Of a stretch of DNA of 64,000 nucleotides, positions 1-45,299 are shown one piece after another. The position numbers and the translations under genes were made by a program. Position 1 is the stretch's first letter; each line of letters starts with the position of its first letter. Location: positions 936 through 64,935 of the forward strand of contig CAYZMD010000001.1 of assembly GCA_964479425.1 (NCBI GenBank), written 5' to 3'. The stretch comes from an uncultured Methanosarcinales archaeon. Lineage in GTDB: Archaea > Nanobdellota > Nanobdellia > Woesearchaeales > CAYSVS01. The notes beneath the pieces were generated by a model that saw only the letters and a list, made by a program, of their open reading frames with translations, was not told the DNA's origin and did not search any database.

Positions 1-3000
1 CTCATTCTAATAAACTTTACCCTTTTAATATATTTTTCATATATATATGGGGCAGCTAAAATTAAAATGAATACTAATAATAACAAAATACCAAATGGTG
101 CAGACGTACAAACGTTTTCTTTTCGTAGGAATGTTGCACAATCTTTAGGACAATTTATTTCAGTTTCTCCATTTCCACAAAATCCATTTCCACATAGGCA
201 TCCTGTAGCATCATATACTTTATCGGGGTTTACTTTTTTACCAATTATAATATATTCTTTATTACATTTAACATCCATATCGTAATATTTAATATTCCCA
301 AGAATAGCTTTATTCTCAATATCTTTATTAATTTCTTCGGCGACAATTTTTTCAATAAGTCTACGCGAAAGTGGATTATCCAATATTTCTGTATGTGTTT
401 CTTCAATATCCCAGAAATTTTCACATCTATTATTTAGGATAACATCATTTATGGATTGTGCACTTTCAATTGATACAATTCCGTCGTTTATTTCTTTATC
501 TCCAAACATTTCTAGTTTTATTAGTTCTTTCCCAAATTGAAAAGTTTTGGTTCCTGCTATAGAATAATATTTAATGTTTGGAACTATTGGCGTATTTTTT
601 CCATTAATTAAATCTTGCATTCCTGGACTATTCACGTCGACTATTGCAGTTCCTGAATTTATATTTGTTAAAAATTGACTTAGAGAAATTAACGTTTCAG
701 CTCCAGGTGTTCCTTTATTTGGAACCCCAACCAGTATTACTTTTTTTATTTTATTTAAATATGTATATGTTCCTGGTTTTTCTAAATTCACAGCATAACT
801 GTAATACAGGGCGTCTCTTGTTACTAGTCCCCCCATTGAATGTGCTACAATATATGCATAATCAAACTCGTTTGCATTGGCTTCTAAGTGATTAGCTAAT
901 TCAACAGCATTTTCTGATACTGCTTTTTCTGTTGGGTATCCAAAGGTCCAAACTTGCCATGGTTGGTTTGTTAGCCTTATATCTTTCAAAATATTTTCAA
1001 AAGTTTTAGGAGAAGACCCAAATCCGTGAACGAGTAACAAAGCATCTCTTACATAATAGTCAGGTTCATAATTTTTCTTTAATGTACTAAACTTACAGTT
1101 TGCACATATTTTTCCTATTTGAGCAATAACAATTTCTTTATTTCTGTCTAAATATTTATAAGGATTTTTTAATTTTGCAACTAGTTTATCTTGCGTTATT
1201 GTCTCTAGTGGCAACCAGGAGTCCTTTGATGTTTTTATATAAAGCTTATTGCTATTACTTTCAATAATATCTTCTTTTATCTCATCAACAGATATTATGA
1301 TTTCTTCACTCAAATTTACATCAGAAGAAATGGCAATTGGATTTCCAAGTATTTTTAATAGGCTATTTTTTGGTTCTCTCACAATATTTTTTGGTTCTCC
1401 ATAAGTAATTGAGGCTTGTTGGTTAAATTGAAGTTCAAACTCATCTTTTCTAATCCTGCTACCACTAAAGACTGTTTCTATAAATTTTTCTTGTCCCAAT
1501 CTTTTTAGATATTTACTTTGTGTACTAAACTCTTTAAACTCTTCTCCACAACTTAAAGAATTAATTTCTTCTAAATTAACTGTCTTACACTCTCCATTAC
1601 AAGCATACGCTTGAATATCTTCATAATTATTAGGCAAAGATAAGCTTAATTTTCCGCTTTGTTCGCATTTTAGTTCAAATTTGTCAATCAAAATATCATA
1701 ACCCAAAGGAATATTAAAATTTAAATCCGAAGAAAATATTTTAAAATTATTTTGATATGATTTTTTGTCTTTTATGCAAGGCATGTTTTCAACATTAACT
1801 GATTTTATGTCAATAGAGCTTTCTAGTCTCTGTTTAAAAATATCAAAAACACTTGTTTCTTTTTCATTAATTATTTGTATTTCCAGCATGACTATGTCTG
1901 AGACAATTCTTCTGAGCTTTACCCTTATGTCAAATATATCATCATCATCTAAATTAATATTAATTATTTCATTAATAGATAAACCAAAATTAAAAGGCGT
2001 ACTTGCTACGGTCATATTAATTTTATATCCAATTTTATTAATTGTTAATTGATGCTCTTTTCCTTTTACACTGAAATTTCTACTTTCAAACTCAGGAATA
2101 TTTAAAAATATTATTTTAATTCCTGTATTTGAAGGAACTTCAGTTCTTGCTTCTTTTTTACATTTATTACAAGGCCCCCCACAGTCAGTTTTTTTCTCTC
2201 CTTGATTTTTTAATCCATCATTACATGTAGCAAGGCATGGCTGGCACGATCCCCCACAATCAGCACCAGTCTCGCCTTGATTTTTAATATTGTCTGTACA
2301 AGTCCCAATACCTGTACACATTCCATTAACACAAATATCTCCATTATTAGGACATCCGCAACTAGAACAATCATTAATTAGATTTAAATTAAAACCACAA
2401 TATTTTGGTTTTTCTATACTGCACTTTTCAACTTTAGTTCCATCTTTACATTCTAAAAAACATGCAGGACAACTTCCTCCACAATCTACATCGAGTTCAT
2501 CCCCATTTTTAATTTTATCTTTGCAGCTAGCGCAAGGTAGACAATTTCCTCCACAATCAATTCCAAGTTCATTTCCATTCTTTACATTGTCTGTACAGCT
2601 AGACATAACACATAAATTTGCAACACAATAATTGCTCAGGCAATCGATATCTAAAGAACAAGTTCTTCCAGCTCCACAGGCTTGACATGGACCTCCACAG
2701 TCTGTGTCCGTTTCTTCCTGATTTAAAATGGTGTCACTACAGCTTGCTTGTCTACATGTATTATCTTTGCAAAATAGACTTAAGCAGTCATAATTTATGT
2801 TACATTTTTCTCCAACTTTACAAGCATAACAACTTCCTCCACAATCTGTGGATGTTTCATCTCCGTTAAAAACTAAATCATTGCAACTTGCTTCTAAGCA
2901 TTTTCCATTGCTACAAAAATTAGAATTACAATCTGAATTTATATTACAGTTTTTATTTAAACTACAGGAAATACAACTTCCTCCACAATCCACATCAGTT

Positions 3001-5795
3001 TCACCCTGATTTAATGAATCATCTCTACAAGATGCAATTTTGCAAACATTATTTACACAATTCTTTGAATTACAATCAGTATCTATATTACAAATTTTAT
3101 CTAATGCACACTTATTACACAATCCTCCACAATCCACATCGCTTTCTTGATTATTCTTAAAATTATCTGCGCAACTTGCTGCAGAACAAGTATTACTTAT
3201 GCAATTATCATTTAAACAATCATTGTTTATATTGCAACTTTTGCCTTCATCACATTTACCACATATTCCTCCACAATCCACATCTGTTTCATCTTGATTC
3301 TGTAAAATATCTATACAGCTCGGAGTGATGCATTTGCCAAATAGACAAAAGTTATTTGAACAGTCTATGTTTGAATTGCATTTATCATTGTCACTACATT
3401 TATTACAACTTCCACCACAATCTACATCACTTTCATCCTGATTTATTATATTGTCAGTACAACTTTCTTGAGTACAAATATTATTTACGCAATTGTTTGT
3501 TATACAATCATCATTTATACTACAACCTTTTCCTGTCTGACACTTGGAACATATTACTCCTCCACAATCTATAAATGTCTCATCTTGATTTTTATTATTA
3601 TCTGTACAAGACGCTGTGTTACATATGTTATTCAAGCAATAATTACTTGCGCAATCTGTACTTATAGAACAACTTTTTCCAAAACCACACCCAATACATA
3701 ATCCTCCACAATCCATATCGCTTTCGTCTTGATTCAATAAATAATCAGAACAACTTTCTTCAAGGCAGATGTTATTAATACATAGGTTGGTCAGGCAATC
3801 ATCGTTTATGCTACAGCTTTTTCCAACATTACATTCGTTACAATTTCCTCCACAATCTACATCACTTTCTCCATAGTCTTTGATGTCATTATTACATCCT
3901 GATTCTACACACTTACCATTCATACACAATCCTGAAGTACAATCCATACTCCATGTACAATCCTTTCCTATATTGCATCCATCACATATTCCTCCACAAT
4001 CTACATCTGTTTCATCTTGATTTCTTATCCCATCACTACATGTTGGGATGTATGTACAACTTTTACTCTCACTATTGTCTCCTGTACAATCATTATTATC
4101 GGGACACAAACAACTACAGCTTCTTATTTGTGTGCCGCCAGGCAAGCAAGTTTCCCAATCACTACAATCCCAACTAGCAGAGCATATTTCTATTTCTGGT
4201 GGTTCATCATTTCCTCCTCCCCCCCCTCCTCCTGTAGATTGAGGTTCATTATCAATTGTAAATCCATGCAAGGTATTTATTTCATTTTCTCCTAAATCTC
4301 TACATACATAAAATTGAAAGTAAGTGTTCCCTTGTAAAACCGTTCTATTTACTTTGTGTAAAGTTCCATTAGACCATGTAAAATTAGCTCCATTTGTAAA
4401 ATTAAAAACAGAAAACCCATATTCACAATTTGCAAATTCGTTAGTAGATATTGTTAATTCTACTCTTGTTGTTGTATATGATAGAGTAACTCCACTATTT
4501 GGATTTTGTATACTTATTATTGGAGTAGTTGTATCAATAGTAAAATTTACATTTGTTGTATTAAGATTGCCTACGGTGTCGTTAGCATAAGCTAAAAGAG
4601 TATTGCTTCCTTCACTAAATATTCTATAAACAGGATTTGTGTATGTTTCATTTTCAGTTCCATTAAAGAACCAAATATTATTTCCATTGCTTGTTATATT
4701 TACTAGAACAGTTACATTATTGTATGTAATATTTTCTGGGGAATTTATTGATATCGTCGGAGCAGTTGTGTCAAATACAATGCTATAATTATCTTCTTCA
4801 CTCCAATTGTTGTTTTCTGCAGAATCATAACCTAAACAATTCCATTCAAATGTATCTTCATAGGGTAATGTATAAGCAAAAGTTGTAGAGTTTGATACTC
4901 CTAATAAATTTGTTGTGTTAGTATGTATATTATCTTCAGTTGAATTCCATAAATAAAGTGTTAAATTAGCAATACTTGTATCATCTGTAATATTACAGTT
5001 AAATGTTTGTAATGCTGTTGAAGTAACTGTTGCATTTATAGGATTTATTAAATGGATAGTTGGATCAACTATATCTTGTTCATTCTCACTAGTTACCAAT
5101 ATCAATTCAGGAGAATAAGTAATATTTTCTTTCGAATAAAAAGAACAACTACAATTAGAATTCTGATCTCTCCATAATCCAAAAGAGATTATTTTATCTC
5201 CATTTAAAACTTCTATTGTGTAATTGGTTACGTTATATGACATTGTTACCAAAACCAATGCTAAATCTTTATTATCAATTTTTGTACCTAAATTTGGTTT
5301 ATTTGCCCATAACAAAGTACTTTCTAACCATGAATCATCATTAACTTTGTATAATGCAACTTTATTATATTGTGAATCACAGTAGACGTTTCTAACGTTC
5401 ACAACCAAATTTAAAGTTGCATTGATTATATTACTTGAGTTATAGTCTGAAATATTAAATTTTAAAAATGATTGTCTATGAAAGCTAGTGCTATCCCATT
5501 CATCATTATCAACAGTTAATGGTTCTCCGTCATGGTTTGTGTCTCCGTAGAAAATACTTCCACAATATGCATCATCTGTTGGAATAATTCTTACATTGGT
5601 TTCGCTTATTTTTGTCTCTGGAATAAAACCCATAATATTAGACATATCTTCTTTTTCATTAATTAAATTTGTAAAATTAACACTATTATTATCGACAGTT
5701 GCCATTCCCGTTATCCCTGATCCTGTAAATATCATATTCAAAAGTAGCAAAAGAATTCCCCATTCCATGATTTCTTCTACTATTTTTTTATTCAT
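1..5795 (-). CDS. Giant secreted/membrane-anchored multidomain surface protein (partial, C-terminus beyond window start): signal peptide, NxS/T-rich region, poly-Gly hinge, ~13 Cys-rich 48-aa repeats, lipase-like alpha/beta-hydrolase domain, C-terminal TM anchor
   Basis: ATG at 5795-5793 overlaps the stop of the upstream gene (ATGA). By-eye translation runs without a stop to position 1, with frame consistent at both ends. The ORF track lists no minus ORF here, which is expected only if the ORF is open at the window edge. N-term MNKKIVEEIMEWGILLLLLNMIFTGSG. Repeats carry DVDCGG. LLVHGFG lies at ~1018-1035 and GxSxG AHSMGG at ~830-847. C-terminal TM APFGILLLLVFILILAAPYIY at ~50-110. Confidence 0.8.
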   Translation of the reverse strand, partial: MNKKIVEEIMEWGILLLLLNMIFTGSGITGMATVDNNSVNFTNLINEKEDMSNIMGFIPETKISETNVRIIPTDDAYCGSIFYGDTNHDGEPLTVDNDEWDSTSFHRQSFLKFNISDYNSSNIINATLNLVVNVRNVYCDSQYNKVALYKVNDDSWLESTLLWANKPNLGTKIDNKDLALVLVTMSYNVTNYTIEVLNGDKIISFGLWRDQNSNCSCSFYSKENITYSPELILVTSENEQDIVDPTIHLINPINATVTSTALQTFNCNITDDTSIANLTLYLWNSTEDNIHTNTTNLLGVSNSTTFAYTLPYEDTFEWNCLGYDSAENNNWSEEDNYSIVFDTTAPTISINSPENITYNNVTVLVNITSNGNNIWFFNGTENETYTNPVYRIFSEGSNTLLAYANDTVGNLNTTNVNFTIDTTTPIISIQNPNSGVTLSYTTTRVELTISTNEFANCEYGFSVFNFTNGANFTWSNGTLHKVNRTVLQGNTYFQFYVCRDLGENEINTLHGFTIDNEPQSTGGGGGGGNDEPPEIEICSASWDCSDWETCLPGGTQIRSCSCLCPDNNDCTGDNSESKSCTYIPTCSDGIRNQDETDVDCGGICDGCNIGKDCTWSMDCTSGLCMNGKCVESGCNNDIKDYGESDVDCGGNCNECNVGKSCSINDDCLTNLCINNICLEESCSDYLLNQDESDMDCGGLCIGCGFGKSCSISTDCASNYCLNNICNTASCTDNNKNQDETFIDCGGVICSKCQTGKGCSINDDCITNNCVNNICTQESCTDNIINQDESDVDCGGSCNKCSDNDKCNSNIDCSNNFCLFGKCITPSCIDILQNQDETDVDCGGICGKCDEGKSCNINNDCLNDNCISNTCSAASCADNFKNNQESDVDCGGLCNKCALDKICNIDTDCNSKNCVNNVCKIASCRDDSLNQGETDVDCGGSCISCSLNKNCNINSDCNSNFCSNGKCLEASCNDLVFNGDETSTDCGGSCYACKVGEKCNINYDCLSLFCKDNTCRQASCSDTILNQEETDTDCGGPCQACGAGRTCSLDIDCLSNYCVANLCVMSSCTDNVKNGNELGIDCGGNCLPCASCKDKIKNGDELDVDCGGSCPACFLECKDGTKVEKCSIEKPKYCGFNLNLINDCSSCGCPNNGDICVNGMCTGIGTCTDNIKNQGETGADCGGSCQPCLATCNDGLKNQGEKKTDCGGPCNKCKKEARTEVPSNTGIKIIFLNIPEFESRNFSVKGKEHQLTINKIGYKINMTVASTPFNFGLSINEIININLDDDDIFDIRVKLRRIVSDIVMLEIQIINEKETSVFDIFKQRLESSIDIKSVNVENMPCIKDKKSYQNNFKIFSSDLNFNIPLGYDILIDKFELKCEQSGKLSLSLPNNYEDIQAYACNGECKTVNLEEINSLSCGEEFKEFSTQSKYLKRLGQEKFIETVFSGSRIRKDEFELQFNQQASITYGEPKNIVREPKNSLLKILGNPIAISSDVNLSEEIIISVDEIKEDIIESNSNKLYIKTSKDSWLPLETITQDKLVAKLKNPYKYLDRNKEIVIAQIGKICANCKFSTLKKNYEPDYYVRDALLLVHGFGSSPKTFENILKDIRLTNQPWQVWTFGYPTEKAVSENAVELANHLEANANEFDYAYIVAHSMGGLVTRDALYYSYAVNLEKPGTYTYLNKIKKVILVGVPNKGTPGAETLISLSQFLTNINSGTAIVDVNSPGMQDLINGKNTPIVPNIKYYSIAGTKTFQFGKELIKLEMFGDKEINDGIVSIESAQSINDVILNNRCENFWDIEETHTEILDNPLSRRLIEKIVAEEINKDIENKAILGNIKYYDMDVKCNKEYIIIGKKVNPDKVYDATGCLCGNGFCGNGETEINCPKDCATFLRKENVCTSAPFGILLLLVFILILAAPYIYEKYIKRVKFIRM
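2150..4060 (-). repeat. Tandem ~144-nt (48-codon) intragenic coding repeats, about 13 copies, each encoding an 8-Cys module: SCxDNxKNQDETDVDCGGxCxKCxxGKxCxxNxDCxSNxCxNNxC
   Basis: Plus-strand motif tcctccacaatc (revcomp gattgtggagga = DCGG) recurs at ~2471, 2538, 2690, 2838, 2980, 3124, 3265, 3412, 3558, 3702, 3846 and 3994, i.e. a 141-152 nt period from 2538 onward. Confidence 0.8.
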
Positions 5796-6259
5796 TTTTT
5801 CTTTGCCCTATTATATGCTGTCCAGATTGTTTTTGGGTTTCTGTCTATCAATCTAGCAATATCTGTAAATCCTAAGTCATATTCTTTTTTTAGAAATACT
5901 GACATTGATTCTAAAGCAGATAATTTTTTCTTAAAAAACATTTTAATAGGAATATCAAAATCAGAATCATAAACGGTTATTTTATCTTTATTTTTTGCAT
6001 TATTATATGTTGTCCATATTGTTCTGTCGTCTCTATTCAAAATCTTAGCAATTTGACTATATTTATATTTACAATTTTCTTTAAGATATTTAACAACACT
6101 TTCTAGTATACTTAATTCTTTTGTAAAAGCAGATAAAGGAATTTTTTCTCTTCTTTCTTTTAATGAATTTGATTTGTTACTTAATTTTTTAAGAAGCATT
6201 TCTATTAATACCTCTTTATCTACGTTCTCTAGAACTTTTGCAATATTCTCTTTTTTCAT
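5792..6259 (-). CDS. Tandem helix-turn-helix domain protein (two ~45-aa HTH repeats, sigma-70 region 4/LuxR-like), putative DNA-binding regulator
   Basis: Internal duplication LSxLESxVKYLKE...IAKILNRDDRTIWTTYNNAK and LSALESMSVFLKK...IARLIDRNPKTIWTAYNRAKKK. Its stop overlaps the start of the giant gene (tcat at 5792-5795). Confidence 0.55.
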   Translation of the reverse strand: MKKENIAKVLENVDKEVLIEMLLKKLSNKSNSLKERREKIPLSAFTKELSILESVVKYLKENCKYKYSQIAKILNRDDRTIWTTYNNAKNKDKITVYDSDFDIPIKMFFKKKLSALESMSVFLKKEYDLGFTDIARLIDRNPKTIWTAYNRAKKK

Positions 6260-11796: not shown

Positions 11797-12600
11797 ATGG
11801 ACTCAAAGAAAATAAAGGCATTATTAGCAAGTACTCAGAAGGTTAATAATCTTAATAAGAATTTGATAAAAGAAATAGAAACAAATAAGAATATAATTTA
11901 TGATTTAAAAAAAACTGAAGTCCAATATAAAAAATGTCAATTAGAATTTGATAAGAAGCAAGTCCATTCTAAATTATTACAAAAACAGGATGATAAGGAT
12001 AAAAATACAAATTCTAATTTAAAAAAGATTGAAAATCAATATAAAAAAGTTCAGCTTGAATTCAAAAAAAAATTAGATCAGATAAAAGAATTACAAAAAC
12101 AAACCGATAAAGACAAAAAAACAATTTCTAGTTTAGAAAAAATAAATTTTCAAAACAAAAAGGCTCAAGTAGATATTAAGAAAAAAACAGATTACATAAA
12201 ATCACTACAAAAAGAAATTGAAAAAAACATCAAAGTAAAAGCAGAATTAATTGAGATAAAAAAGAAATTAACATCGCCCTCAAAAACAATAGATAGACTT
12301 ATCTTAAATAATAATGAAAAAGACAAATTGATTGAAAAACTTCAAGATTTTGTTTTTAGGGCTGACGAAAAGAATAAAGAGTCTGAAAAATTAGTTGATT
12401 CTTTAAATAATGAAACTAATATGCTTAATAACAAAATTAAAGATATGCTTTCTTTACAACATAAATTAAGAAATCAAATAAATGCTATGAAAAATGAACG
12501 TGCTTCTTTTAAAAAACACATTATGCATTTAGAACAGCAGAAAGAAGAATTAGTAAAGGAAAAATTAAGATTTCAGAAAAAAAGAATGTATATTAAATAA
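11797..12600 (+). CDS. Lys-rich coiled-coil protein with ~41-aa tandem repeats
   Basis: Repeats of the pattern KKxEVQYKKxQLEFxKKxxxxKxLQKQxDKDKxTxSxLxKI. Oligo-T tract after the stop. Confidence 0.5.
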   Translation: MDSKKIKALLASTQKVNNLNKNLIKEIETNKNIIYDLKKTEVQYKKCQLEFDKKQVHSKLLQKQDDKDKNTNSNLKKIENQYKKVQLEFKKKLDQIKELQKQTDKDKKTISSLEKINFQNKKAQVDIKKKTDYIKSLQKEIEKNIKVKAELIEIKKKLTSPSKTIDRLILNNNEKDKLIEKLQDFVFRADEKNKESEKLVDSLNNETNMLNNKIKDMLSLQHKLRNQINAMKNERASFKKHIMHLEQQKEELVKEKLRFQKKRMYIK

Positions 12601-12619
12601 AAAAGAAAAAAATGTTTTT

Positions 12620-13573
12620 TTATTCTGTATGTCTTACGGCAATTTTTGTTTGAACTTTGTCTTCGTATGCATACTCTAAGTCTATTTTGATTTGTTTTTC
12701 GCTATCTATCCTTGTAGGAAGGGTTTGGGTACATACTATATTTCTTTTCTCATTACCACTATTTCCATATAGCTCAATGCTTCCTTCTGTTCCTTGTAGT
12801 CCTGTACATATCATCTGACCGCCAACAATATTGCTATCTACTTTTATGGTTACTCTATTTTTATTTTGTAATGTTGGTTCACAAGCAACTCCTCTTTTAT
12901 ACAATGCTCCTTCTCCTACATGTTCAACGTCAAAAGATAAACTTATTTTATCTTTTCCAATAGCGGATTGTTTTACATTTGTAACTTTTACTGGAGCGCC
13001 ACTATTTTGTGTTTCTTTATCATCATTTACTTCACATAATGCAGTTTCTCCTGTTTTTCTAGTACTGCCTAATAAATCTTCTAAAATGCAAATTTGAGCA
13101 ACAGCTTTTGTGGCATAAGGATAACATACTTCCGCTAGAATTGTTGGGTATATTGTCCCTGTAATAGTGTTTGCTTGCAGGTTAACAAATTCTACTCCAT
13201 CTATACTTCCTACAAGAGGATTCCCTTGAGGGTCTAAGCTAGCTCCCCTTAGTTCATTAACATTTTTTTTAACTAAGTCTGTAGCTATAACATTATAGTC
13301 TTGAGGAAAAATTCCTTTGATTCTTACAATTGCTTCATTGCCAGGAATATCTGTTTCTCCAACATTTTCGAGTCTTACATTTATATTAAAAGGATAATTT
13401 ACGTCGTAAACTTCTTCAGGAGGTGCTCCTGTGTTAAATTTAATATCTAATCCTTTGTCTCCTCCAATAAATGCAACACCTGAGCCGCCTGTTGAGGTTT
13501 TATCATCTGTTTGTTGACCATCACAACCAACAATTAATAACATTAATACAATTAATGCAATAATCTTTTTCAT
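12620..13573 (-). CDS. Lipoprotein, paralog 1 of 3 (CARDB-like beta-sandwich surface protein)
   Basis: Signal plus lipobox MKKIIALIVLMLLIVGCDG. Shared motifs with the next two genes (CYPYAT, GAPVKV, IKIDLEYAY). CARDB-like NINVRLENVGETDIPGNEAIVRI. Confidence 0.65.
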   Translation of the reverse strand: MKKIIALIVLMLLIVGCDGQQTDDKTSTGGSGVAFIGGDKGLDIKFNTGAPPEEVYDVNYPFNINVRLENVGETDIPGNEAIVRIKGIFPQDYNVIATDLVKKNVNELRGASLDPQGNPLVGSIDGVEFVNLQANTITGTIYPTILAEVCYPYATKAVAQICILEDLLGSTRKTGETALCEVNDDKETQNSGAPVKVTNVKQSAIGKDKISLSFDVEHVGEGALYKRGVACEPTLQNKNRVTIKVDSNIVGGQMICTGLQGTEGSIELYGNSGNEKRNIVCTQTLPTRIDSEKQIKIDLEYAYEDKVQTKIAVRHTE

Positions 13574-13588
13574 CTTTTCATCACCTTT

Positions 13589-14521
13589 CTAAGTAGGAAC
13601 TTTAATTATTTCAACTTTTTTCGAAATACTTTCCATATATCCATAATCAAGTTTGATTTCTAATGGTGTTTGGTAAGCAAATTTGTTTTCGCTAGGTATT
13701 ACAAATGTACAAAAAATAGTTGCTTTCCCATTAATCAATCTTACTTCATTGCTTGGACTACATTTTTCAGGTCTTTTTCCTGATAGTGTAACATAATATT
13801 TTGCTTTATTTAAATCATCATATTCTAAATCAAAAGGACATTCATGTATTCTTATTACTTTTCCTTTTCCTGCATTATTTACTTCAATTTTAAAATGTGC
13901 TTTATCTCCTATTGTATTTACTCTTACAGCGCTTACAGATACTGGACCTCCTTGCCCACTTCCCATTGGAACATCTCTTGGAACACATGCTTTTTCTTCA
14001 ATACTTATATCGTAAAATTTAGGATCAATACATACAATAGCATTAGATAAAGTTTGATATTCATAACACATTGTTGCAATAAGTGTTGGTTCATAGACAT
14101 CGGTTCCTGTTGGTAAATTGATTGAAGATGAACTAAATTCAATTGTTTCCATTTCTCCCTCTGTATTGTATTTTGTTCTACCTTCTAAAGGACCAAAACT
14201 TTTTTCGGTATCAATACCTCTTATTAAATTTTTATCATGTCCTCCTAAATAAATTTTCCCATTTGTTTTGTAGGCTCCTTTATTATTTATTTCAATAAGC
14301 ATATTAATGTTTGTTGTATCATATAGTCTAGATGGAGGCAAATCTTTCATAAAATCCATCGTTATTCCTTGTGTTCCTATATACACTTTGTCTGTTAGAA
14401 TTCCTCCTCCTGCTGTTTCGGTGCTTGTTTTTCTTAAATTAAATCTATCGCAACCTGTTAATAATAGTAAAGAAATTAATAACAATATAATCCAGACTCT
14501 TTTTTTTTTCATTTTATTCAT
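13589..14521 (-). CDS. Lipoprotein, paralog 2 of 3
   Basis: MNKMKKKRVWIILLLISLLLLTGCD lipobox. Motifs CYEYQT, GGPVSV, IKLDYGY. IEVNNAGKGKVIRI. Confidence 0.65.
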   Translation of the reverse strand: MNKMKKKRVWIILLLISLLLLTGCDRFNLRKTSTETAGGGILTDKVYIGTQGITMDFMKDLPPSRLYDTTNINMLIEINNKGAYKTNGKIYLGGHDKNLIRGIDTEKSFGPLEGRTKYNTEGEMETIEFSSSSINLPTGTDVYEPTLIATMCYEYQTLSNAIVCIDPKFYDISIEEKACVPRDVPMGSGQGGPVSVSAVRVNTIGDKAHFKIEVNNAGKGKVIRIHECPFDLEYDDLNKAKYYVTLSGKRPEKCSPSNEVRLINGKATIFCTFVIPSENKFAYQTPLEIKLDYGYMESISKKVEIIKVPT

Positions 14522-14554
14522 TATAAACCTATATTATAGTATATATAAATTTTT

Positions 14555-15478
14555 CTATTCTTTTACTTTAATACTTCCTTTATGTTCACTTCTATAATTA
14601 TAATTGAGCTTAACTGAAAAAATACTTTTGTAAACTCCTTCACTTCTTTCTATTAATGTTGAACATCTGAATGTACCTCTTTTTTCTTTTAATTTTACTT
14701 CCTTAGGTGTACATTCTAAATCCCTTATTCCTACAACAGCATCACTTATTATTATTTTTTCGTCAGTAACTTTTCCATCTCCGATATTACTTATTTCTAT
14801 GTCGTAATTAGCATATATACCACTACCTTTTGATGTTATATATTCTTTTATCTTTTTTACAGCCACGGGTGCTCCTTGATTATTTAGTGAGATTGTAGTT
14901 GGGTCGCAAGCGTCTTTCACAATTTTCATATGCTCATAGATATTTGGGTTTATGCAGACTTCTGTACTTGCTATTGTAGCATAAGGATAGTCTAATTCAA
15001 TAATATAAGGTTGTGTATATTCTTTGGCTCCATATTGTAGTTTTAAATTAACTATTCTAAATTCAATAATCTCTTGTTCTCCTTCTGGTAGGTATCTACT
15101 TTTTCCTGCAAGCGTAACCAATCTTTCGTCTTTATATGGAGAGAAGTAAAGAGAATTTAGTGCAGATAATATTACTTTTGCATCTGCAACATCTTCTGTC
15201 CCAGAATTTTTTAATTCCATTCCTATTGTGAATTCTTCTCCTTCAAAAATTTCTTTTGGAGGCATTCCTGTAATTTCTTTTATAGTTAGTCCATCATCTC
15301 CTTTTCTATAATCTTCTGTAGGCGGGACTTTTCCTTGTGCTGATAATTTACCAAAATTACCGAGTTTTAAATATTGACATCCACCTAGTAATATGACGAC
15401 AATTAATAAAATAATTATTTTTTTCATGCTTAAAAATCTACGATTTCTTTGATGCTGAAAATTTACAATTTTCATCAT
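14555..15478 (-). CDS. Lipoprotein, paralog 3 of 3 (alternative start 15427)
   Basis: MKKIIILLIVVILLGGCQ lipobox follows a 17-aa N-extension. Motifs DYPYAT, GAPVAV, KLNYNY. ELKNSGTEDVADAKVIL. Confidence 0.6.
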   Translation of the reverse strand: MMKIVNFQHQRNRRFLSMKKIIILLIVVILLGGCQYLKLGNFGKLSAQGKVPPTEDYRKGDDGLTIKEITGMPPKEIFEGEEFTIGMELKNSGTEDVADAKVILSALNSLYFSPYKDERLVTLAGKSRYLPEGEQEIIEFRIVNLKLQYGAKEYTQPYIIELDYPYATIASTEVCINPNIYEHMKIVKDACDPTTISLNNQGAPVAVKKIKEYITSKGSGIYANYDIEISNIGDGKVTDEKIIISDAVVGIRDLECTPKEVKLKEKRGTFRCSTLIERSEGVYKSIFSVKLNYNYRSEHKGSIKVKE

Positions 15479-17373
15479 GATACAAAATCACCTACTCGTA
15501 CATTATATTTTTTTTCAATGGTATATGAATATGTAACTCTTCCTTCAATATCTTTAGGCTCTTTTCTTGCTTTTGTTAGTTCAATTCCTAAATCATCAGT
15601 TTCATCAATTTTAAGTTGACAGGTCGCTATTCTTGTTTTTTTATTTTTTGTTATTTTACTAAAATCACTTTTGTATTCGTTAATAACCCAAGTTCTTTCA
15701 CCTGCATTCCATTCACTACATGTTTCTTCACTTTTTTTAGTAATTCCTGGAATCATATCAATTTCAATTCTTTTAATCTCTTTTATTTTTCCAACTTGGT
15801 TATTTGTTATTGAGTATGAAAAAGACAAATCAATATCTCCCGCAGGATTTCTTATGTTTGATATTATAGGATATGTTGGGGGCTGTCCGATAAAAAAGAC
15901 TAATGACGCAAATTCTTCTGCAGGAGTAAATGGAACATATATACCATTCTGAAAACATTCAGGACAACTTCCAAGGACTAAGGTCTGGATTAATTTATCT
16001 TTATTTTCTTTGTTTAATTTTTCATCTCCAACAAAAACTTTTGTTAATATGGATGTAGTTGTAACATCTTTTACGTAAAATACAAATTCTGCTGTATATT
16101 TTCCTTTCCCGAGTCGCTCAATTGGTCTACAAACAATTTCTGCTTCTAGTGGATAATCAGTGTCTTCAATCTTTGGAATAATAAAACTTGCATAAGAATC
16201 TACACTTCCTTTTATTGTCTTTTTATCTTTTTCACTTGGTTTAAAAAAACAACTCATTTCAACTGGAATTTCTTCTATAGCACTTCCATATTCTAATGCA
16301 ATTTGATATCCGCTAATAGGATCAATGTTTGCAATTGTTTCAGCAAGTGGGTATACTGATGATTTTTTTATTCTAAAAACCAACCCTTTTGCTCTTTTTG
16401 ATGTTGCTACAGTCATTTTTTTCTCTTCTTCTTCAGGAGGATGCATACAATCATAATAGTTTTCTCCATACCACAAACTTCTCCATGTACAATACATTGG
16501 ATTGGCAATAACTTTCTTAGTATCTTCAAGCTGGTCTTCTCGCGCTAACGCAACTTCTTCTGATTGACCAAATGCTGAAATTTGTTCCCCCATACCGCTT
16601 ATTGCAATTACAAATATTACAAAGTAAACAAGCGCTAGGCTTGTAATCGCTTTAGAAAATCCTTTCTCTGTGGTTGTTCTTGTATAATATGCAAATAATA
16701 CCCACCACGGCCAGAAAACAGAAAGAAAAAATGTATTTCCTGCAAGCCCTGCAATTGTTACAATTTCTGTATGTAAAAAAGTTAGAATTGCTGCAAATAT
16801 TGCTGTTGGTCCCAATAAATCAAGTGTATAAAAAATCATTAAAATATTAAGGAACATATAGCTAGTTCTTAATCCTGTACTGCTAACGTCAACAATATAT
16901 GGTAGTACCCAGATGAGTATTCCAAACAATAGAATTTTTTTATATTTTTTATCTTCAGATTCAGAAAGTTTTTGTTTTTGTGATTTTGCTTTACCTACTC
17001 CTTTTTTTAATCCCCATAAGCCCGCTGCTCCAAGGCCACCCAATGCCCATTTTATTCCCTTGCCTATGCCTTTAACTCCTTTTTTTAATGTAGGCGTATA
17101 AACATCAGTATAGTTGCCTACTGTTTCGGCACCTGATTTTACTGCATTTACTCCTGTTGATACTTTATCTTTAGTCCATTTGTGTGTATCTTTTGCCCAT
17201 TGAGGAGTTGCATTTTGAGCAGCTTCTTTTGCTACTTGCCCTACTCCTTTAGTCCACAAAGTTTCTTCTTGTAGATTTACTTTTGCAAGCTTTTCTTTCC
17301 TATCTGCATCTTTTTTTTTAGCTTCTTTATCCCATTGTTCTTGAAGGAAAGTACCTTCTTCTTCTTTAGCCAT
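15475..17373 (-). CDS. Polytopic membrane protein: Lys-rich cytoplasmic N-domain, ~4 TM helices, ~380-aa extracytoplasmic C-domain
   Basis: Hydrophobic segments ILLFGILIWVLPYIV, MFLNILMIFYTLDLLGPTAIFAAILTFL, TFFLSVFWPWWVLFAYY, ITSLALVYFVIFVIAISGM. ATGA-style overlap with the downstream lipoprotein gene. Confidence 0.6.
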   Translation of the reverse strand: MAKEEEGTFLQEQWDKEAKKKDADRKEKLAKVNLQEETLWTKGVGQVAKEAAQNATPQWAKDTHKWTKDKVSTGVNAVKSGAETVGNYTDVYTPTLKKGVKGIGKGIKWALGGLGAAGLWGLKKGVGKAKSQKQKLSESEDKKYKKILLFGILIWVLPYIVDVSSTGLRTSYMFLNILMIFYTLDLLGPTAIFAAILTFLHTEIVTIAGLAGNTFFLSVFWPWWVLFAYYTRTTTEKGFSKAITSLALVYFVIFVIAISGMGEQISAFGQSEEVALAREDQLEDTKKVIANPMYCTWRSLWYGENYYDCMHPPEEEEKKMTVATSKRAKGLVFRIKKSSVYPLAETIANIDPISGYQIALEYGSAIEEIPVEMSCFFKPSEKDKKTIKGSVDSYASFIIPKIEDTDYPLEAEIVCRPIERLGKGKYTAEFVFYVKDVTTTSILTKVFVGDEKLNKENKDKLIQTLVLGSCPECFQNGIYVPFTPAEEFASLVFFIGQPPTYPIISNIRNPAGDIDLSFSYSITNNQVGKIKEIKRIEIDMIPGITKKSEETCSEWNAGERTWVINEYKSDFSKITKNKKTRIATCQLKIDETDDLGIELTKARKEPKDIEGRVTYSYTIEKKYNVRVGDFVS

Positions 17374-17374
17374 C

Positions 17375-18577
17375 TTAGTCTTTTTCGTAATAGTCTATGT
17401 TGAATTCTCCAACATAAAAGTCATTTCTTGGCAAAATTTTAACAATGTTTGTTCCTTGATCAACAAAAATTTTAATCTTATCACTATACCCTACATCTGT
17501 AGTATCCAGAACAGTTTCATGACCATTGATTATTATTCTTGCTTCTTTTTCTTCTATGTCGTCTGCAAATCTCATTGTTAAATTGACATAAGCATTGTTT
17601 CTTTGTAGTTCACTATACTGCGTACTATTCAGATAGAAATCATAGATAAAGTCTCTTGATTCTTTTAAGTCACTTTTTACTTGAACTTGGTCTAGTAAGT
17701 AGCTTCCTTTATCTGCACTAATTTCAAGAATATTTTCTCCTTGAGCAATACAATAAGGTAGAATTTCATGTATACTTAATTGATTACAATCAGGAACTCC
17801 TGCAAAAACTTTACAGTCATTCAGATTAACTCTAAGAACTCCAACATCTCCAGGAGTACAGTCTGGAAAGTATCTTAATTTAATTCTATTCAAATTATCT
17901 TTTTCAAATTCATCTACAATAAATCTTAATTTGCTACTTCGTGCACTAACATCGGTTAAGTCTCCTGTTATTTGTACATTTTCTAGGCTGAACTCATGTG
18001 TTTTCCAAAATGCAGCTCCTACGCTAGATGCGCTAAATTCTATTAAATTTTGGTTTTTTAAGAAGTCCTTGGATATTTTTATAGGCGATATCTGTCCTTC
18101 TGATAATTCTTTATTGAAAATTTCATTACCATTAATTTTGATGTTTAACATACCAGCACTAGATATTATTTCAAAATTTAATAATAAATTTGCACTATTC
18201 TCTATGTCTTTCAATGTAAAACTAAAATTATCTTTCTCGTCGCTAAAAACTGCTCTTTTTACATAAATACTGTTTTTTTCTTTTAGAACAGTTCCTTCTG
18301 TTTTAGTATACAAATAAACCGAGGCGAGATCATGCTCTACTTCTTTTTGTTGTAGATATGTTAGTTTGCCAGGTATTTCAGAAAGTAAATTGGTTTGTAT
18401 ATAATCTTCGCTATCAGTAGACACGCTATTACTTGAACTGGAGCTATCTCCTTCAAGGATTCTTTGTCTATCTTCAGGAGGAATAAACATGATGTAAACA
18501 ACAATAAGAATTGTTATAACAACTACGAGTACCGCAGCACTTCCTCCTCCTTCTTGACCTCTTTTCTTTCTGAACAT
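17375..18577 (-). CDS. N-terminally anchored extracytoplasmic protein (signal-anchor)
   Basis: MFRKKRGQEGGGSAAVLVVVITILIVVYIMFI, then a ~360-aa Ser/Asn-rich soluble domain. The ORF-track start is GTG; the first ATG is at 18577. One nt from the next gene. Confidence 0.55.
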   Translation of the reverse strand: MFRKKRGQEGGGSAAVLVVVITILIVVYIMFIPPEDRQRILEGDSSSSSNSVSTDSEDYIQTNLLSEIPGKLTYLQQKEVEHDLASVYLYTKTEGTVLKEKNSIYVKRAVFSDEKDNFSFTLKDIENSANLLLNFEIISSAGMLNIKINGNEIFNKELSEGQISPIKISKDFLKNQNLIEFSASSVGAAFWKTHEFSLENVQITGDLTDVSARSSKLRFIVDEFEKDNLNRIKLRYFPDCTPGDVGVLRVNLNDCKVFAGVPDCNQLSIHEILPYCIAQGENILEISADKGSYLLDQVQVKSDLKESRDFIYDFYLNSTQYSELQRNNAYVNLTMRFADDIEEKEARIIINGHETVLDTTDVGYSDKIKIFVDQGTNIVKILPRNDFYVGEFNIDYYEKD

Positions 18578-18755
18578 AAATATCACCTTTTTATATTATT
18601 TTATATTATAGAGAACTTTGATTCATTTCTAAAAAATGTAGTTTTCATTTATTTATCATACATCAAAGTTCGCTATATAGGGTTATTAAACCCTCTATAA
18701 TCTTTATTACTTAAAAATAAATAACTTTATATATAAATATATTTCTATTTTGAAC

Positions 18756-43841: not shown

Positions 43842-45191
43842 TTAATTATATTCTATTTCGTATTTTTCATCTGGATTTTTCTGTTTCTTAGTTTTCTTCT
43901 TATCTCCTGAAAAAAAAGTTTTTCTTCTAGAATATTGTAAAGGATTTCTTACTTTATTACATAAATTATCTGGAGAACAAACCTGTAAATCTTTATAGAA
44001 TGTAGAAGTACAATTGTGAGGTAAAACTCTCTTTTTATTTTGTTTATGATATCTTATTTGTCCTTTTATCATTACTTCTCTTAATGGTTCGGGATTAGCT
44101 TTATTCCATTCTACTAACCTTTTTTCAATCATTTCATGACTCCATCCAGAGGATGCCATAAAATTAACTAAACAAAATAAAGCCCTTTTCCTTCCATCTG
44201 CAAGTCCTTCTAACATTTTTTTAATGCAAGGTGGAAATAAATCTTCAATAATTGCTTCTTCTGGAATTTCGTACTCCTTTTTGTCTTCTACAATTTGTTT
44301 ATATTCGTCCTCTATTTGCGGTTCAAAATCATATGCCTGAACAAATAAATTCTTAGCTTCTCCCTCAATTGCACTTTCTCTGTCTAAAAACTTTATTGAA
44401 AAATCATTCACATTCTCAGGCTTTGCTTGTTTCTTACTAAAACTTAGTATTTTATCTAATTCCACAGGAATGCTGACTAGTCCAGATTTTTCATTAAATG
44501 AATAGTTATGTCTAAGTAAATGCCTTGAAGAAATTAGAATAGTATCAATTTCTAATACTAAGAAAGGATCAAACTCTCCTTTATCCATTATTTCATCTAT
44601 TCCGCTCTTTTCTTTTATTGTTTCAAAAGAGTCCTTGATCATCATTTTTTTAAGATGCCCTCTAATCATATCTTTAAGGTAGGCAGCAATTCTTCTTGGA
44701 GCTTCAGGAAATAATTTTCTTATTTCTTGATTACTAACTGTTTTAGGAAATGCTTCAAATGGCACGGCAATATGGTATCCATGATTTCCAGAAAATTTCA
44801 CACTGACAGAATCTATACCATGATGTTTTAGTGCATGCACTAGTAGGTGTGCTGCCATTCCGCTATATCCCAAATCTTTACAGTCAATATCAAGTATTAA
44901 ATCCCATCCACTTCTTAATGTTTCTATCTCATTCTTTTTCATTAGTGGATCAATAGCAAGAGGGTTATTCCAAGTCTCTTCAGAAAAATGAAAGGAAGTT
45001 ATGCCTTGTTTTACTAATTCAAGAATATCTCCTTCATACATGATTGTATCTGGTCTTCTTGCATAGCCTTTTCCGCCATAGCTACCAACAACTTCTTTAT
45101 TCTGGCTAATTCTAACTATCTCTTTTTGAACTTCCTTTCTAGAATAATGTTTGAGTACAATATTTTTATCAATCTCAATCATGTCAGCCAT
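43842..45191 (-). CDS. priS: DNA primase catalytic subunit PriS fused to a PriL-like C-terminal (Fe-S) domain
   Basis: AEP motifs LILDIDCKD (DxD) and SGNHGYHIAV. The C-terminal LFPPCIKKMLEGL ... CLVNF ... C ... C resembles the PriL-CTD FPPCM region. ATG at 45191 (MADMIEID). Confidence 0.7.
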   Translation of the reverse strand: MADMIEIDKNIVLKHYSRKEVQKEIVRISQNKEVVGSYGGKGYARRPDTIMYEGDILELVKQGITSFHFSEETWNNPLAIDPLMKKNEIETLRSGWDLILDIDCKDLGYSGMAAHLLVHALKHHGIDSVSVKFSGNHGYHIAVPFEAFPKTVSNQEIRKLFPEAPRRIAAYLKDMIRGHLKKMMIKDSFETIKEKSGIDEIMDKGEFDPFLVLEIDTILISSRHLLRHNYSFNEKSGLVSIPVELDKILSFSKKQAKPENVNDFSIKFLDRESAIEGEAKNLFVQAYDFEPQIEDEYKQIVEDKKEYEIPEEAIIEDLFPPCIKKMLEGLADGRKRALFCLVNFMASSGWSHEMIEKRLVEWNKANPEPLREVMIKGQIRYHKQNKKRVLPHNCTSTFYKDLQVCSPDNLCNKVRNPLQYSRRKTFFSGDKKKTKKQKNPDEKYEIEYN

Positions 45192-45299
45192 ATGTTTTTT
45201 AATTTTTAGCAATCTTATATAGTTTGTTATAATACAAACAATAATTAATGAAAAGTAAATTCTTAGCAAATATAGTATTATAATAGTATTATAAGAGTT

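Follow-up and report, generated by a model that had tools for sequence, protein, structure and literature searches.

A 64,000-nucleotide (nt) stretch of contig CAYZMD010000001.1 (here called the window), from an uncultured archaeon labeled Methanosarcinales and placed by GTDB in the Woesearchaeales, carries on its minus strand at positions 12620 to 18586 an operon-like block of five open reading frames (ORFs), g1 to g5, built from three protein families that have neither a curated family nor a name. Our preferred interpretation, put forward tentatively and somewhat short of even confidence, is that the operon codes for an unglycosylated, glycan-binding surface platform with which bacterial cell walls are engaged. 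Few uncultured archaea are as widespread as the Woesearchaeota, whose partners and mode of attachment are not known. The operon gives them a concrete candidate for a surface contact apparatus, one physically fused to wall hydrolases in several lineages.

The ORFs and their spacings bear out the five tightly packed minus-strand genes described in a first-pass annotation of the window (Table 1): g1 and g2 are separated by 1 nt, g2 and g3 overlap by 4 nt, and the gaps between g3 and g4 and between g4 and g5 are 33 nt and 15 nt, respectively. GGTGA-type ribosome-binding sites lie upstream of g1 (ATG 18577), g3, and g5. The operon codes for a bitopic protein (g1), a polytopic membrane protein (g2), and three lipoproteins (g3 to g5, referred to as positions 1 to 3).

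Table 1. Features of the five-gene operon and its borders, and hydrolase domain matches on g2 orthologs at related loci (aa, amino acids; TM, transmembrane)
Feature	Position in window	Strand	Residues	Basis or remarks
g1, bitopic protein	17375..18577	-	400 aa	
g1 TM helix	18479..18547	-	11-33	Alignments, hydropathy, model helix at 12-30
g1 three tandem jelly-rolls	17381..18403	-	59-399 (approx. 59-190, 194-305, 310-399)	
g2, polytopic membrane protein	15475..17373	-	632 aa	ORF, hydropathy, composition, orthologs from loci
g2 TM region	16591..16938	-	146-261	3 strong hydrophobic segments
g2 ectodomain	15478..16590	-	262-632	Cys-rich (8 Cys), no sequons
g3, position-1 lipoprotein paralog	14555..15478	-	307 aa	Lipobox LLGGC; ORF, BLASTP, orthogroup
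g4, position-2 lipoprotein paralog	13589..14521	-	310 aa	Lipobox LLTGC
g5, position-3 lipoprotein paralog	12620..13573	-	317 aa	Lipobox LIVGC; ORF, BLASTP, orthogroup
Divergent intergenic region, g1/Pelota gene	18578..18749	-		AT-rich, TATA-like runs; sequence read; promoter putative
T-rich tract directly 3' of g5 stop	12576..12619	-		Coding strand TTTTTTTCTTTTTT...; sequence read
L025 g2, SLT			523-610	34.9 bits (cut-off 21.3)
L042 g2, SLT			660-764	41.4 bits (cut-off 21.3)
L023 g2, GH73 glucosaminidase			495-601	35.2 bits (cut-off 30.2)
L019 g2, GH73			595-679	28.4 bits (cut-off 30.2, just below)
L014 g2, SLT			832-897	20.3 bits (just below cut-off)
L014 g2, NlpC/P60			749-811	16.6 bits (just below cut-off)
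L043 g2, C-type lysozyme-like			598-649	25.8 bits (cut-off 27)

The products of g3, g4, and g5, each of about 310 aa, had been described as paralogs, and pairwise alignment agrees, with BLASTP E values of 6e-14, 3e-10, and 4e-23 and about 26% identity over nearly the full length. The lipobox signals read at their N termini are real and extend across the family: a lipobox Cys follows a hydrophobic region in 150 of 155 family members, the −1 residue is Gly in 98, Ser in 29, and Ala in 17, and the −3 residue is Leu, Ile, or Val. In all three window proteins the pattern [LVI][ASTVI][GAS]C closes the hydrophobic region of the signal peptide. The three proteins are predicted to be lipid anchored and extracytoplasmic, and AliA, the enzyme of lipidation, has been reported from DPANN archaea (PMC12462473). 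The motif blocks that the three were said to share coincide with positions conserved across an alignment of 111 family sequences (C-Y-x-Y-x-T, Q-G-(A/G)-P-V, L-x-Y-x-Y, and N-x-G), and there are 4 to 8 Cys residues per ectodomain. Structures of g4 and g1 were modeled with AlphaFold2; the g4 model (predicted local distance difference test score, 84; predicted template modeling score, 0.75) contains a signal helix, a disordered tether (residues 23 to 39), and two Ig-like beta-sandwich domains (residues ∼45 to 185 and ∼190 to 306), each with the seven-to-eight-stranded arrangement of the Ig-like/E-set fold. The view of each lipoprotein as two Ig-like beta-sandwiches that make up a rod, held on a tether of about 20 residues, is well supported by this model. 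The annotated start of g3 adds an atypical 17-residue extension (MMKIVNFQHQRNRRFLS) ahead of a canonical lipoprotein signal (MKKIIILL...GGC), and translation may in fact begin at Met18 (ATG at 15427); yet it is the first ATG that the GGTGA site precedes.

Protein g2 is organized with a Lys/Gly/Ala-rich head (residues 1 to 145) followed by the TM region and the ectodomain. Its orthologs were drawn from syntenic loci; the low-complexity head swamped a word-index search, which returned g2 alone. The TM region is poorly conserved, save for G209 and a WPWWV motif common to some orthologs, and a crude hydropathy scan finds three strong TM segments in g2 and three or five in orthologs. A cytoplasmic Lys-rich head and an external C-terminal domain would require an odd number, so the four TM segments originally assigned to g2 are doubtful; the topology is consistent with N-in, C-out. 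When 172 lipoproteins were compared by hhalign with the last TM helix and ectodomain of 25 g2 orthologs, the match (E = 4e-5; probability, 70%) took the form of a single colinear alignment of lipoprotein residues 5 to 308 with g2 residues 242 to 630, in which the N-x-x-G-K-I and Y-S-Y motifs coincide. On this evidence the ectodomain of g2 is probably a fourth, divergent member of the lipoprotein paralogs, and the final TM helix of g2 stands where the lipoproteins have their signal peptide. A PHROGs scan of g2 and its orthologs returned nothing informative.

The conserved core of g2 ends at the C terminus of the window protein, and several orthologs run on past it. Murein hydrolase domains with catalytic motifs present are found at the g2 C terminus in at least six lineages (Table 1), appended after the conserved core, with the exception of L043, in which the lysozyme-like stretch lies inside the core match. 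At a further locus, L012, on an aquifer contig, the operon (12809 to 17008) contains a separate gene for a 342-aa GH73 glucosaminidase. The catalytic motifs are QES...GLMQ, IES...GLLQ, and HES...GVFQ for the SLT and lysozyme-like domains, and HESWG...NLFGI and LESGA...NPFGV...GYATD for GH73, with YATD in the L012 gene. The first-pass annotation had stated that none of the five proteins has an enzyme motif, and this holds in the window, where Pfam and NCBIfam scans of g1 to g5 gave no match to a peptidoglycan hydrolase (SLT PF01464, GH73 PF01832, or NlpC/P60 PF00877), but not for the family, since g2 orthologs carry enzyme domains. The attachment of three to four unrelated wall-cleaving families to one scaffold argues, in Rosetta-stone fashion, for a scaffold with its place of work at peptidoglycan, and because archaea of this group are without murein, the target should be bacterial. 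Isolated murein transglycosylase genes of Woesearchaeota have already led to proposals that the murein hydrolases of this group serve to attach to bacteria or to attack them (PMC8204110, 2021; PMC9723730, Vigneron et al. 2022), and there is evidence that archaeal peptidoglycan hydrolases kill bacteria (PMC12352652). The fused hydrolase domains thus lend independent support to the suggestion, made when the operon was first noticed, that it serves in host contact.

Two side observations concern the same loci. The position-2 lipoprotein of L012 is present only as a 117-aa C-terminal fragment (15637 to 15990), and the arrangement could reflect an insertion, decay to a pseudogene, or an artifact of assembly. 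The g2 orthologs of L031, L029, L026, L024, and L008 have C-terminal extensions or insertions of 100 to 370 aa without a Pfam or PHROG match, and these may be further effector modules on the same scaffold.

A different signal comes from N-glycosylation sequons (N-x-S/T, where x is not P), which the lipoproteins exclude almost entirely and which are depleted in g2 ectodomains. There are none in g3, g4, g5, and the g2 ectodomain, compared with about 8 expected; 65 lipoproteins from the loci have 11 (about 123 expected), and 147 representatives of the lipoprotein family have 4 (316.5 expected), with none in 143 of them. In the same proteins, the observed-to-expected ratios of control motifs are 0.72 to 0.78 for the reverse motif, 0.97 to 1.25 for D-x-S/T, and 0.92 to 0.93 for Q-x-S/T. 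Ser or Thr occupies the +2 position of Asn in 25 of 2,302 instances (1.1%, compared with a background of 14.7%), and 21 of the 25 are N-P-S/T, a context that oligosaccharyltransferase is unable to use. The sequon ratio is 0.26 for g2 ectodomains and 0.67 for g1, and there is no depletion in the remaining ORFs of 200 aa or more at these loci (350 sequons; 366 expected) or in the window's giant CBM96 protein (32 sequons; 32.4 expected). Such a pattern argues strongly that these lipoproteins, and the ectodomain of g2 with them, undergo export, come into contact with an AglB-type enzyme, and need to remain free of N-glycans. No description of such a pattern for archaeal surface lipoproteins was found in the literature searched, and the near-absolute exclusion is a clean evolutionary signal that some of these proteins must remain unglycosylated. 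Elsewhere in the loci, small unrelated lipobox proteins have no sequons (L008:19691-20368; L001:17495-18097, minus strand; L038:15883-16407, minus strand), and N-anchored exported proteins are sequon rich (L042:13945-14943, minus strand, with 4 compared with 1.5 expected; L019:12422-13096, plus strand, with 6 compared with 3.0 expected). Both contrast with the bare lipoproteins, and the L042 protein has a pilin-like MGWRRGQ and hydrophobic N terminus.

Translation of g1 most likely begins at ATG 18577 and not at GTG 18586, because a GGTGA (18583 to 18587) lies 5 nt upstream of the ATG and an identical database copy, P0010, is 400 aa. The 403 aa originally given for g1 are thus likelier to be 400, and its description as Ser/Asn-rich applies only to Ser in a stalk of about 15 residues. 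The protein is ordered as an N-terminal MFRKKRGQ, a TM helix ending in YI(M/L)FIPPEDR, the Ser-rich disordered stalk, and three beta jelly-rolls. Residues A14, L17, I21, and Y28 of the helix are invariant, P33 at its end opens the PPEDR motif, and the helix and the YI(L/M)F(I/L)PPEDR motif are conserved in sequence, as is an upstream [KR][KR][GA][QED] in orthologs from loci where the N terminus was read. Such conservation suggests an intramembrane partner, presumably g2, and class III signal-peptide processing is possible. The remainder of g1 contains three internal repeats of about 100 residues (hhalign self-match, E = 4.7e-9) and has a beta jelly-roll fold of the carbohydrate-binding module (CBM)/galactose-binding-like type. 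No CBM family in Pfam matched g1 (only DUF6805, at E = 0.027), no PDB profile matched, and no sugar-binding residues were identified.

The operon is widely distributed. Word-index searches with its proteins return few relatives; a profile search with the lipoprotein alignment returns 3,260 clusters (50% identity) at E ≤ 1e-3 and 1,494 at E ≤ 1e-30. Among the best 150 of the 3,260 clusters, most proteins are of about 300 aa, and those looked up are named "hypothetical protein" only. About 40 loci were gathered by genomic look-ups and two collection scans, the latter using the closer position-2 lipoprotein subfamily, and mapping with hidden Markov models finds the order g1-g2-lipoprotein-lipoprotein-lipoprotein in at least 19 distinct Woesearchaeota loci, with protein identity down to ∼30%. 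The operon usually sits between the Pelota and RFC genes. For 48 of 51 lipoproteins, and for all six from loci with two paralogs, most of the five top matches in other genomes occupy the same lipoprotein position, and median identity is 26.5% for paralogs within a genome and 31% for same-position proteins across genomes. These same-position matches imply that the lipoprotein triplication is ancient, with three orthogroups and each copy kept, a pattern to be expected if the three are non-redundant subunits within a single assembly. Judged by gene order and orthology in the Woesearchaeota and Nanoarchaeia loci covered, the operon is a vertically inherited core feature, probably Woesearchaeota-specific and present in every lineage sampled. 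With at least 19 syntenic loci, no curated family, and a predicted extracytoplasmic location, the first-pass view of a dedicated and undescribed envelope module stands; that annotation had not recognized the triple jelly-roll of g1, the g2 ectodomain as a probable fourth paralog, or the lineage-wide vertical inheritance.

The labels of 17 genome loci are Woesearchaeota, Nanoarchaeota, or Nanoarchaeia in 11 and "uncultured Methanosarcinales" in 6. The latter are third-party annotation (TPA) metagenome-assembled genomes (L015, L016, L018, L021, L026, and L027) in which operon and synteny are of the Woesearchaeota type, and the label is probably a taxonomic error. L004, L016, and L018 (and also the short contigs L033 and L034) form a mostly marine sub-clade, 57 to 61% identical to the window g4, in which the lipoproteins beside RFC are those of positions 2 and 3 only, with Topo VI upstream in L004.

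In the interpretation that we favor, the four paralogous ectodomains of g2 to g5 would form a hetero-oligomeric, N-glycan-free platform at the membrane surface; g1 would dock on g2 via its conserved TM helix and supply glycan binding, and with the whole the archaeon would engage the cell walls of bacteria. In several sister lineages, peptidoglycan at the site of contact would be opened by the muramidase, glucosaminidase, or endopeptidase domain that the distal g2 C terminus carries, and the window copy would be an enzyme-free core, providing adhesion or scaffolding alone or acting with a hydrolase encoded elsewhere in the genome. Several points weigh against this interpretation. The window g2 is without a hydrolase domain, no peptidoglycan hydrolase is present among the window ORFs scanned, and the association with hydrolases is seen in only about 7 of ∼25 lineages, with three of the domain matches just below Pfam cut-offs. 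It is the fold that suggests glycan or peptidoglycan binding by g1, whose invariant residues look structural, and it is synteny and paralogy that point to a five-protein complex. The short lipoprotein tethers would reach only ∼10 nm, hydrolases could equally well digest free cell-wall debris, and, to our knowledge, the hosts of Woesearchaeota are not known. Sequon avoidance may also be general to membrane-proximal lipoproteins of Woesearchaeota and not particular to this complex, as an unrelated 1,034-aa C1-peptidase lipoprotein (L004:10796-13900, plus strand) has 1 sequon compared with 11.1 expected; the control set of non-family lipoproteins is small.

Among the alternatives, a purely structural role, with g1 and the four ectodomains making an S-layer-like or pseudo-periplasmic scaffold for cell integrity and the hydrolase tails as passengers, would suit a vertically inherited operon with housekeeping synteny in every lineage sampled, and the fixed three-orthogroup set suggests an obligate hetero-oligomer. 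Codon adaptation of g4 (0.76) and g5 (0.72) is also nearer that of ribosomal-protein genes (mean, 0.73) than that of other genes (mean, 0.68), a weak hint of high expression, but the difference is small. We nonetheless consider a structural layer unlikely: archaeal S-layer proteins are typically heavily N-glycosylated, whereas the lipoprotein family is almost sequon free, the proteins are small and lipid tethered and not large lattice formers, and the repeated independent gain of three murein hydrolase families by g2 is hard to explain by chance. The "S-layer-associated" role floated in the first-pass annotation is unsupported in that form, the near-absence of sequons arguing against a classical archaeal S-layer glycoprotein. 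Scavenging of glycans in the manner of Sus or Csc systems, with g1 and the lipoproteins catching free polysaccharide or wall fragments and a hydrolase-bearing g2 trimming them for uptake without cell contact, draws on the CBM-like triple jelly-roll, the glycoside hydrolase tails of g2 orthologs, and the fermentative Pta/AckA pathway adjoining the operon. It is improbable nevertheless, as at none of the loci does the operon have a linked gene for a transporter, a permease, or sugar catabolism, most lineages, the window included, are without the enzyme, and NlpC/P60 and SLT are wall-opening and not nutritional enzymes.

The conserved [KR][KR]-[GA]-[QED] just ahead of the hydrophobic helix of g1 orthologs raises the idea of a type IV pilin-like structure or bindosome, in which g1 would be a class III signal-peptide protein, cleaved after [KR][GA] and assembled with the other four. 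This is very improbable, because the +2 to +7 residues of g1 are small or polar (EGGGSA) and not the hydrophobic start of canonical archaeal pilins, neither the operon nor its flanks contain a gene for a PilB/PilC-type ATPase, platform, or prepilin peptidase, and the window yielded no further pilin-like ORF. Archaeal lipobox lipoproteins are often solute-binding proteins (PMC12462473), and the first-pass annotation had itself given ABC substrate-binding proteins as an example of a known system a confident match to which would count against its view. A role as substrate-binding lipoproteins of an ABC or other transporter is effectively refuted by fold, family scans, and gene context: the g4 model is all-beta and not the alpha/beta periplasmic-binding fold, there is no Pfam or NCBIfam match to a substrate-binding protein, and no permease or ATPase gene is nearby.

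A bolder form of the bacterial-wall interpretation, in which the operon is a new archaeal envelope machine whose four obligatorily unglycosylated rods and lectin-like triple jelly-roll dock on bacterial walls and, with interchangeable hydrolase tips, breach them, seems to us doubtful as it stands. Were it true, bacteria, and not archaea, would be the partners or prey of an abundant DPANN lineage, and sequon exclusion would be a functional requirement, for example for threading into the murein mesh or escaping the complex's own lectin.

The window is archaeal and low in G+C (∼29 to 33%), and the operon is flanked by genes for Pelota, the RFC small subunit, a PRC-barrel protein, TyrRS, Pta/AckA, TrmB, and PheRS. 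A sigma-70 promoter scan of the g1/Pelota intergenic region found no more sites than in shuffled sequence, and such a scan is uninformative for an archaeon. The T-rich tract following g5 is a plausible candidate for an archaeal oligo-T terminator and is convergent with an ORF ending at 12600. This ORF (11797 to 12600, plus strand), between RFC and g5, codes for a Lys-rich, repeat-like protein of 267 aa with no Pfam match and lies outside the conserved module, because relatives have none or another ORF at that spot. A 155-aa ORF (5792 to 6259, minus strand) with a sigma-70 region-4-like helix-turn-helix (E = 1e-8) lies directly upstream of the gene for a protein of more than 1,931 aa (1 to 5795, minus strand) that has CBM96 (E = 2e-21) and DUF7379 domains and continues beyond the end of the window; sigma factors of bacterial type are reported to be typical of Woesearchaeota (PMC8204110). 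The small and large subunits of DNA primase, PriS and PriL, both match a single 475-aa ORF (43842 to 45269, minus strand), pointing to a primase fusion.

Comparison with known families finds resemblances of fold and organization. Pfam and NCBIfam scans of all five proteins gave nothing at or above any cut-off, and profile searches with the g1, g2, and lipoprotein families against PDB sequences gave nothing at E < 0.1. The likeness of the lipoproteins to CARDB and DUF11 domains, proposed in the first-pass annotation, is sound for the Ig-like sandwich and the N-x-G strand motif but not for membership by sequence: g3 scores 14.7 bits (E = 0.036) against CARDB (PF07705), for which the cut-off is 22.7, g4 and g5 have no match, and the 111 family members include six sub-threshold CARDB matches (best E = 0.007) and one DUF11 (PF01345) match (E = 0.088). 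The blocks C-Y-x-Y-x-T, V-C-I-D-P, Q-G-A-P-V, and L-x-Y-G-Y and six conserved Cys residues have no counterpart in CARDB. PapD-like periplasmic chaperones of chaperone-usher systems were considered and rejected, the matches being to single domains only and membership in the family not borne out. Protein g1 resembles BcsB, the sugar-binding jelly-rolls of CBM and GH2 type, and PNGase F at no more than 12% identity and without a Pfam match, and differs from them in having three repeats, no flavodoxin-like domains, and no identified catalytic or sugar-binding residues.

Three systems come closest in organization. The murein hydrolase surface proteins of Woesearchaeota (PMC8204110, PMC9723730) share with the operon the lineage, the extracellular site, and SLT/GH23 domains proposed both to bind bacterial walls and to degrade them, and the g2 orthologs of L025, L042, and L014 have SLT domains with E-S and GLMQ motifs. 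These are, however, single large proteins of up to 3,000 aa, compared with a five-gene operon whose window g2 is without a hydrolase, and the g2 scaffold, unlike them, can carry GH73, lysozyme-like, or NlpC/P60 domains. The WxL/Csc loci of Gram-positive bacteria (WxL proteins, a DUF916 WxLIP, and a small LPXTG protein) are likewise multigene, with paralogous beta-sandwich surface proteins and a TM-anchored partner that assemble into a complex associated with the wall, and WxLIP is among the Foldseek matches (E ∼ 5e-4), but with a TM-score of ∼0.2 and no sequence homology. The operon proteins are without WxL or LPXTG motifs and have lipobox or TM anchors in an archaeal membrane; the likeness is one of possible working mode and not of family. 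SusE and SusF of Bacteroidetes are also lipid-tethered, with tandem Ig-like and CBM-like beta-sandwiches acting with a surface glycoside hydrolase; here there is no SusC/SusD transporter pair, no homology is detected, and the CBM-like and Ig-like modules are on different polypeptides. The operon is apparently homologous to none of the Sus-like, WxL/Csc-like, and Woesearchaeota murein hydrolase proteins, but it is these three that it would work most like.

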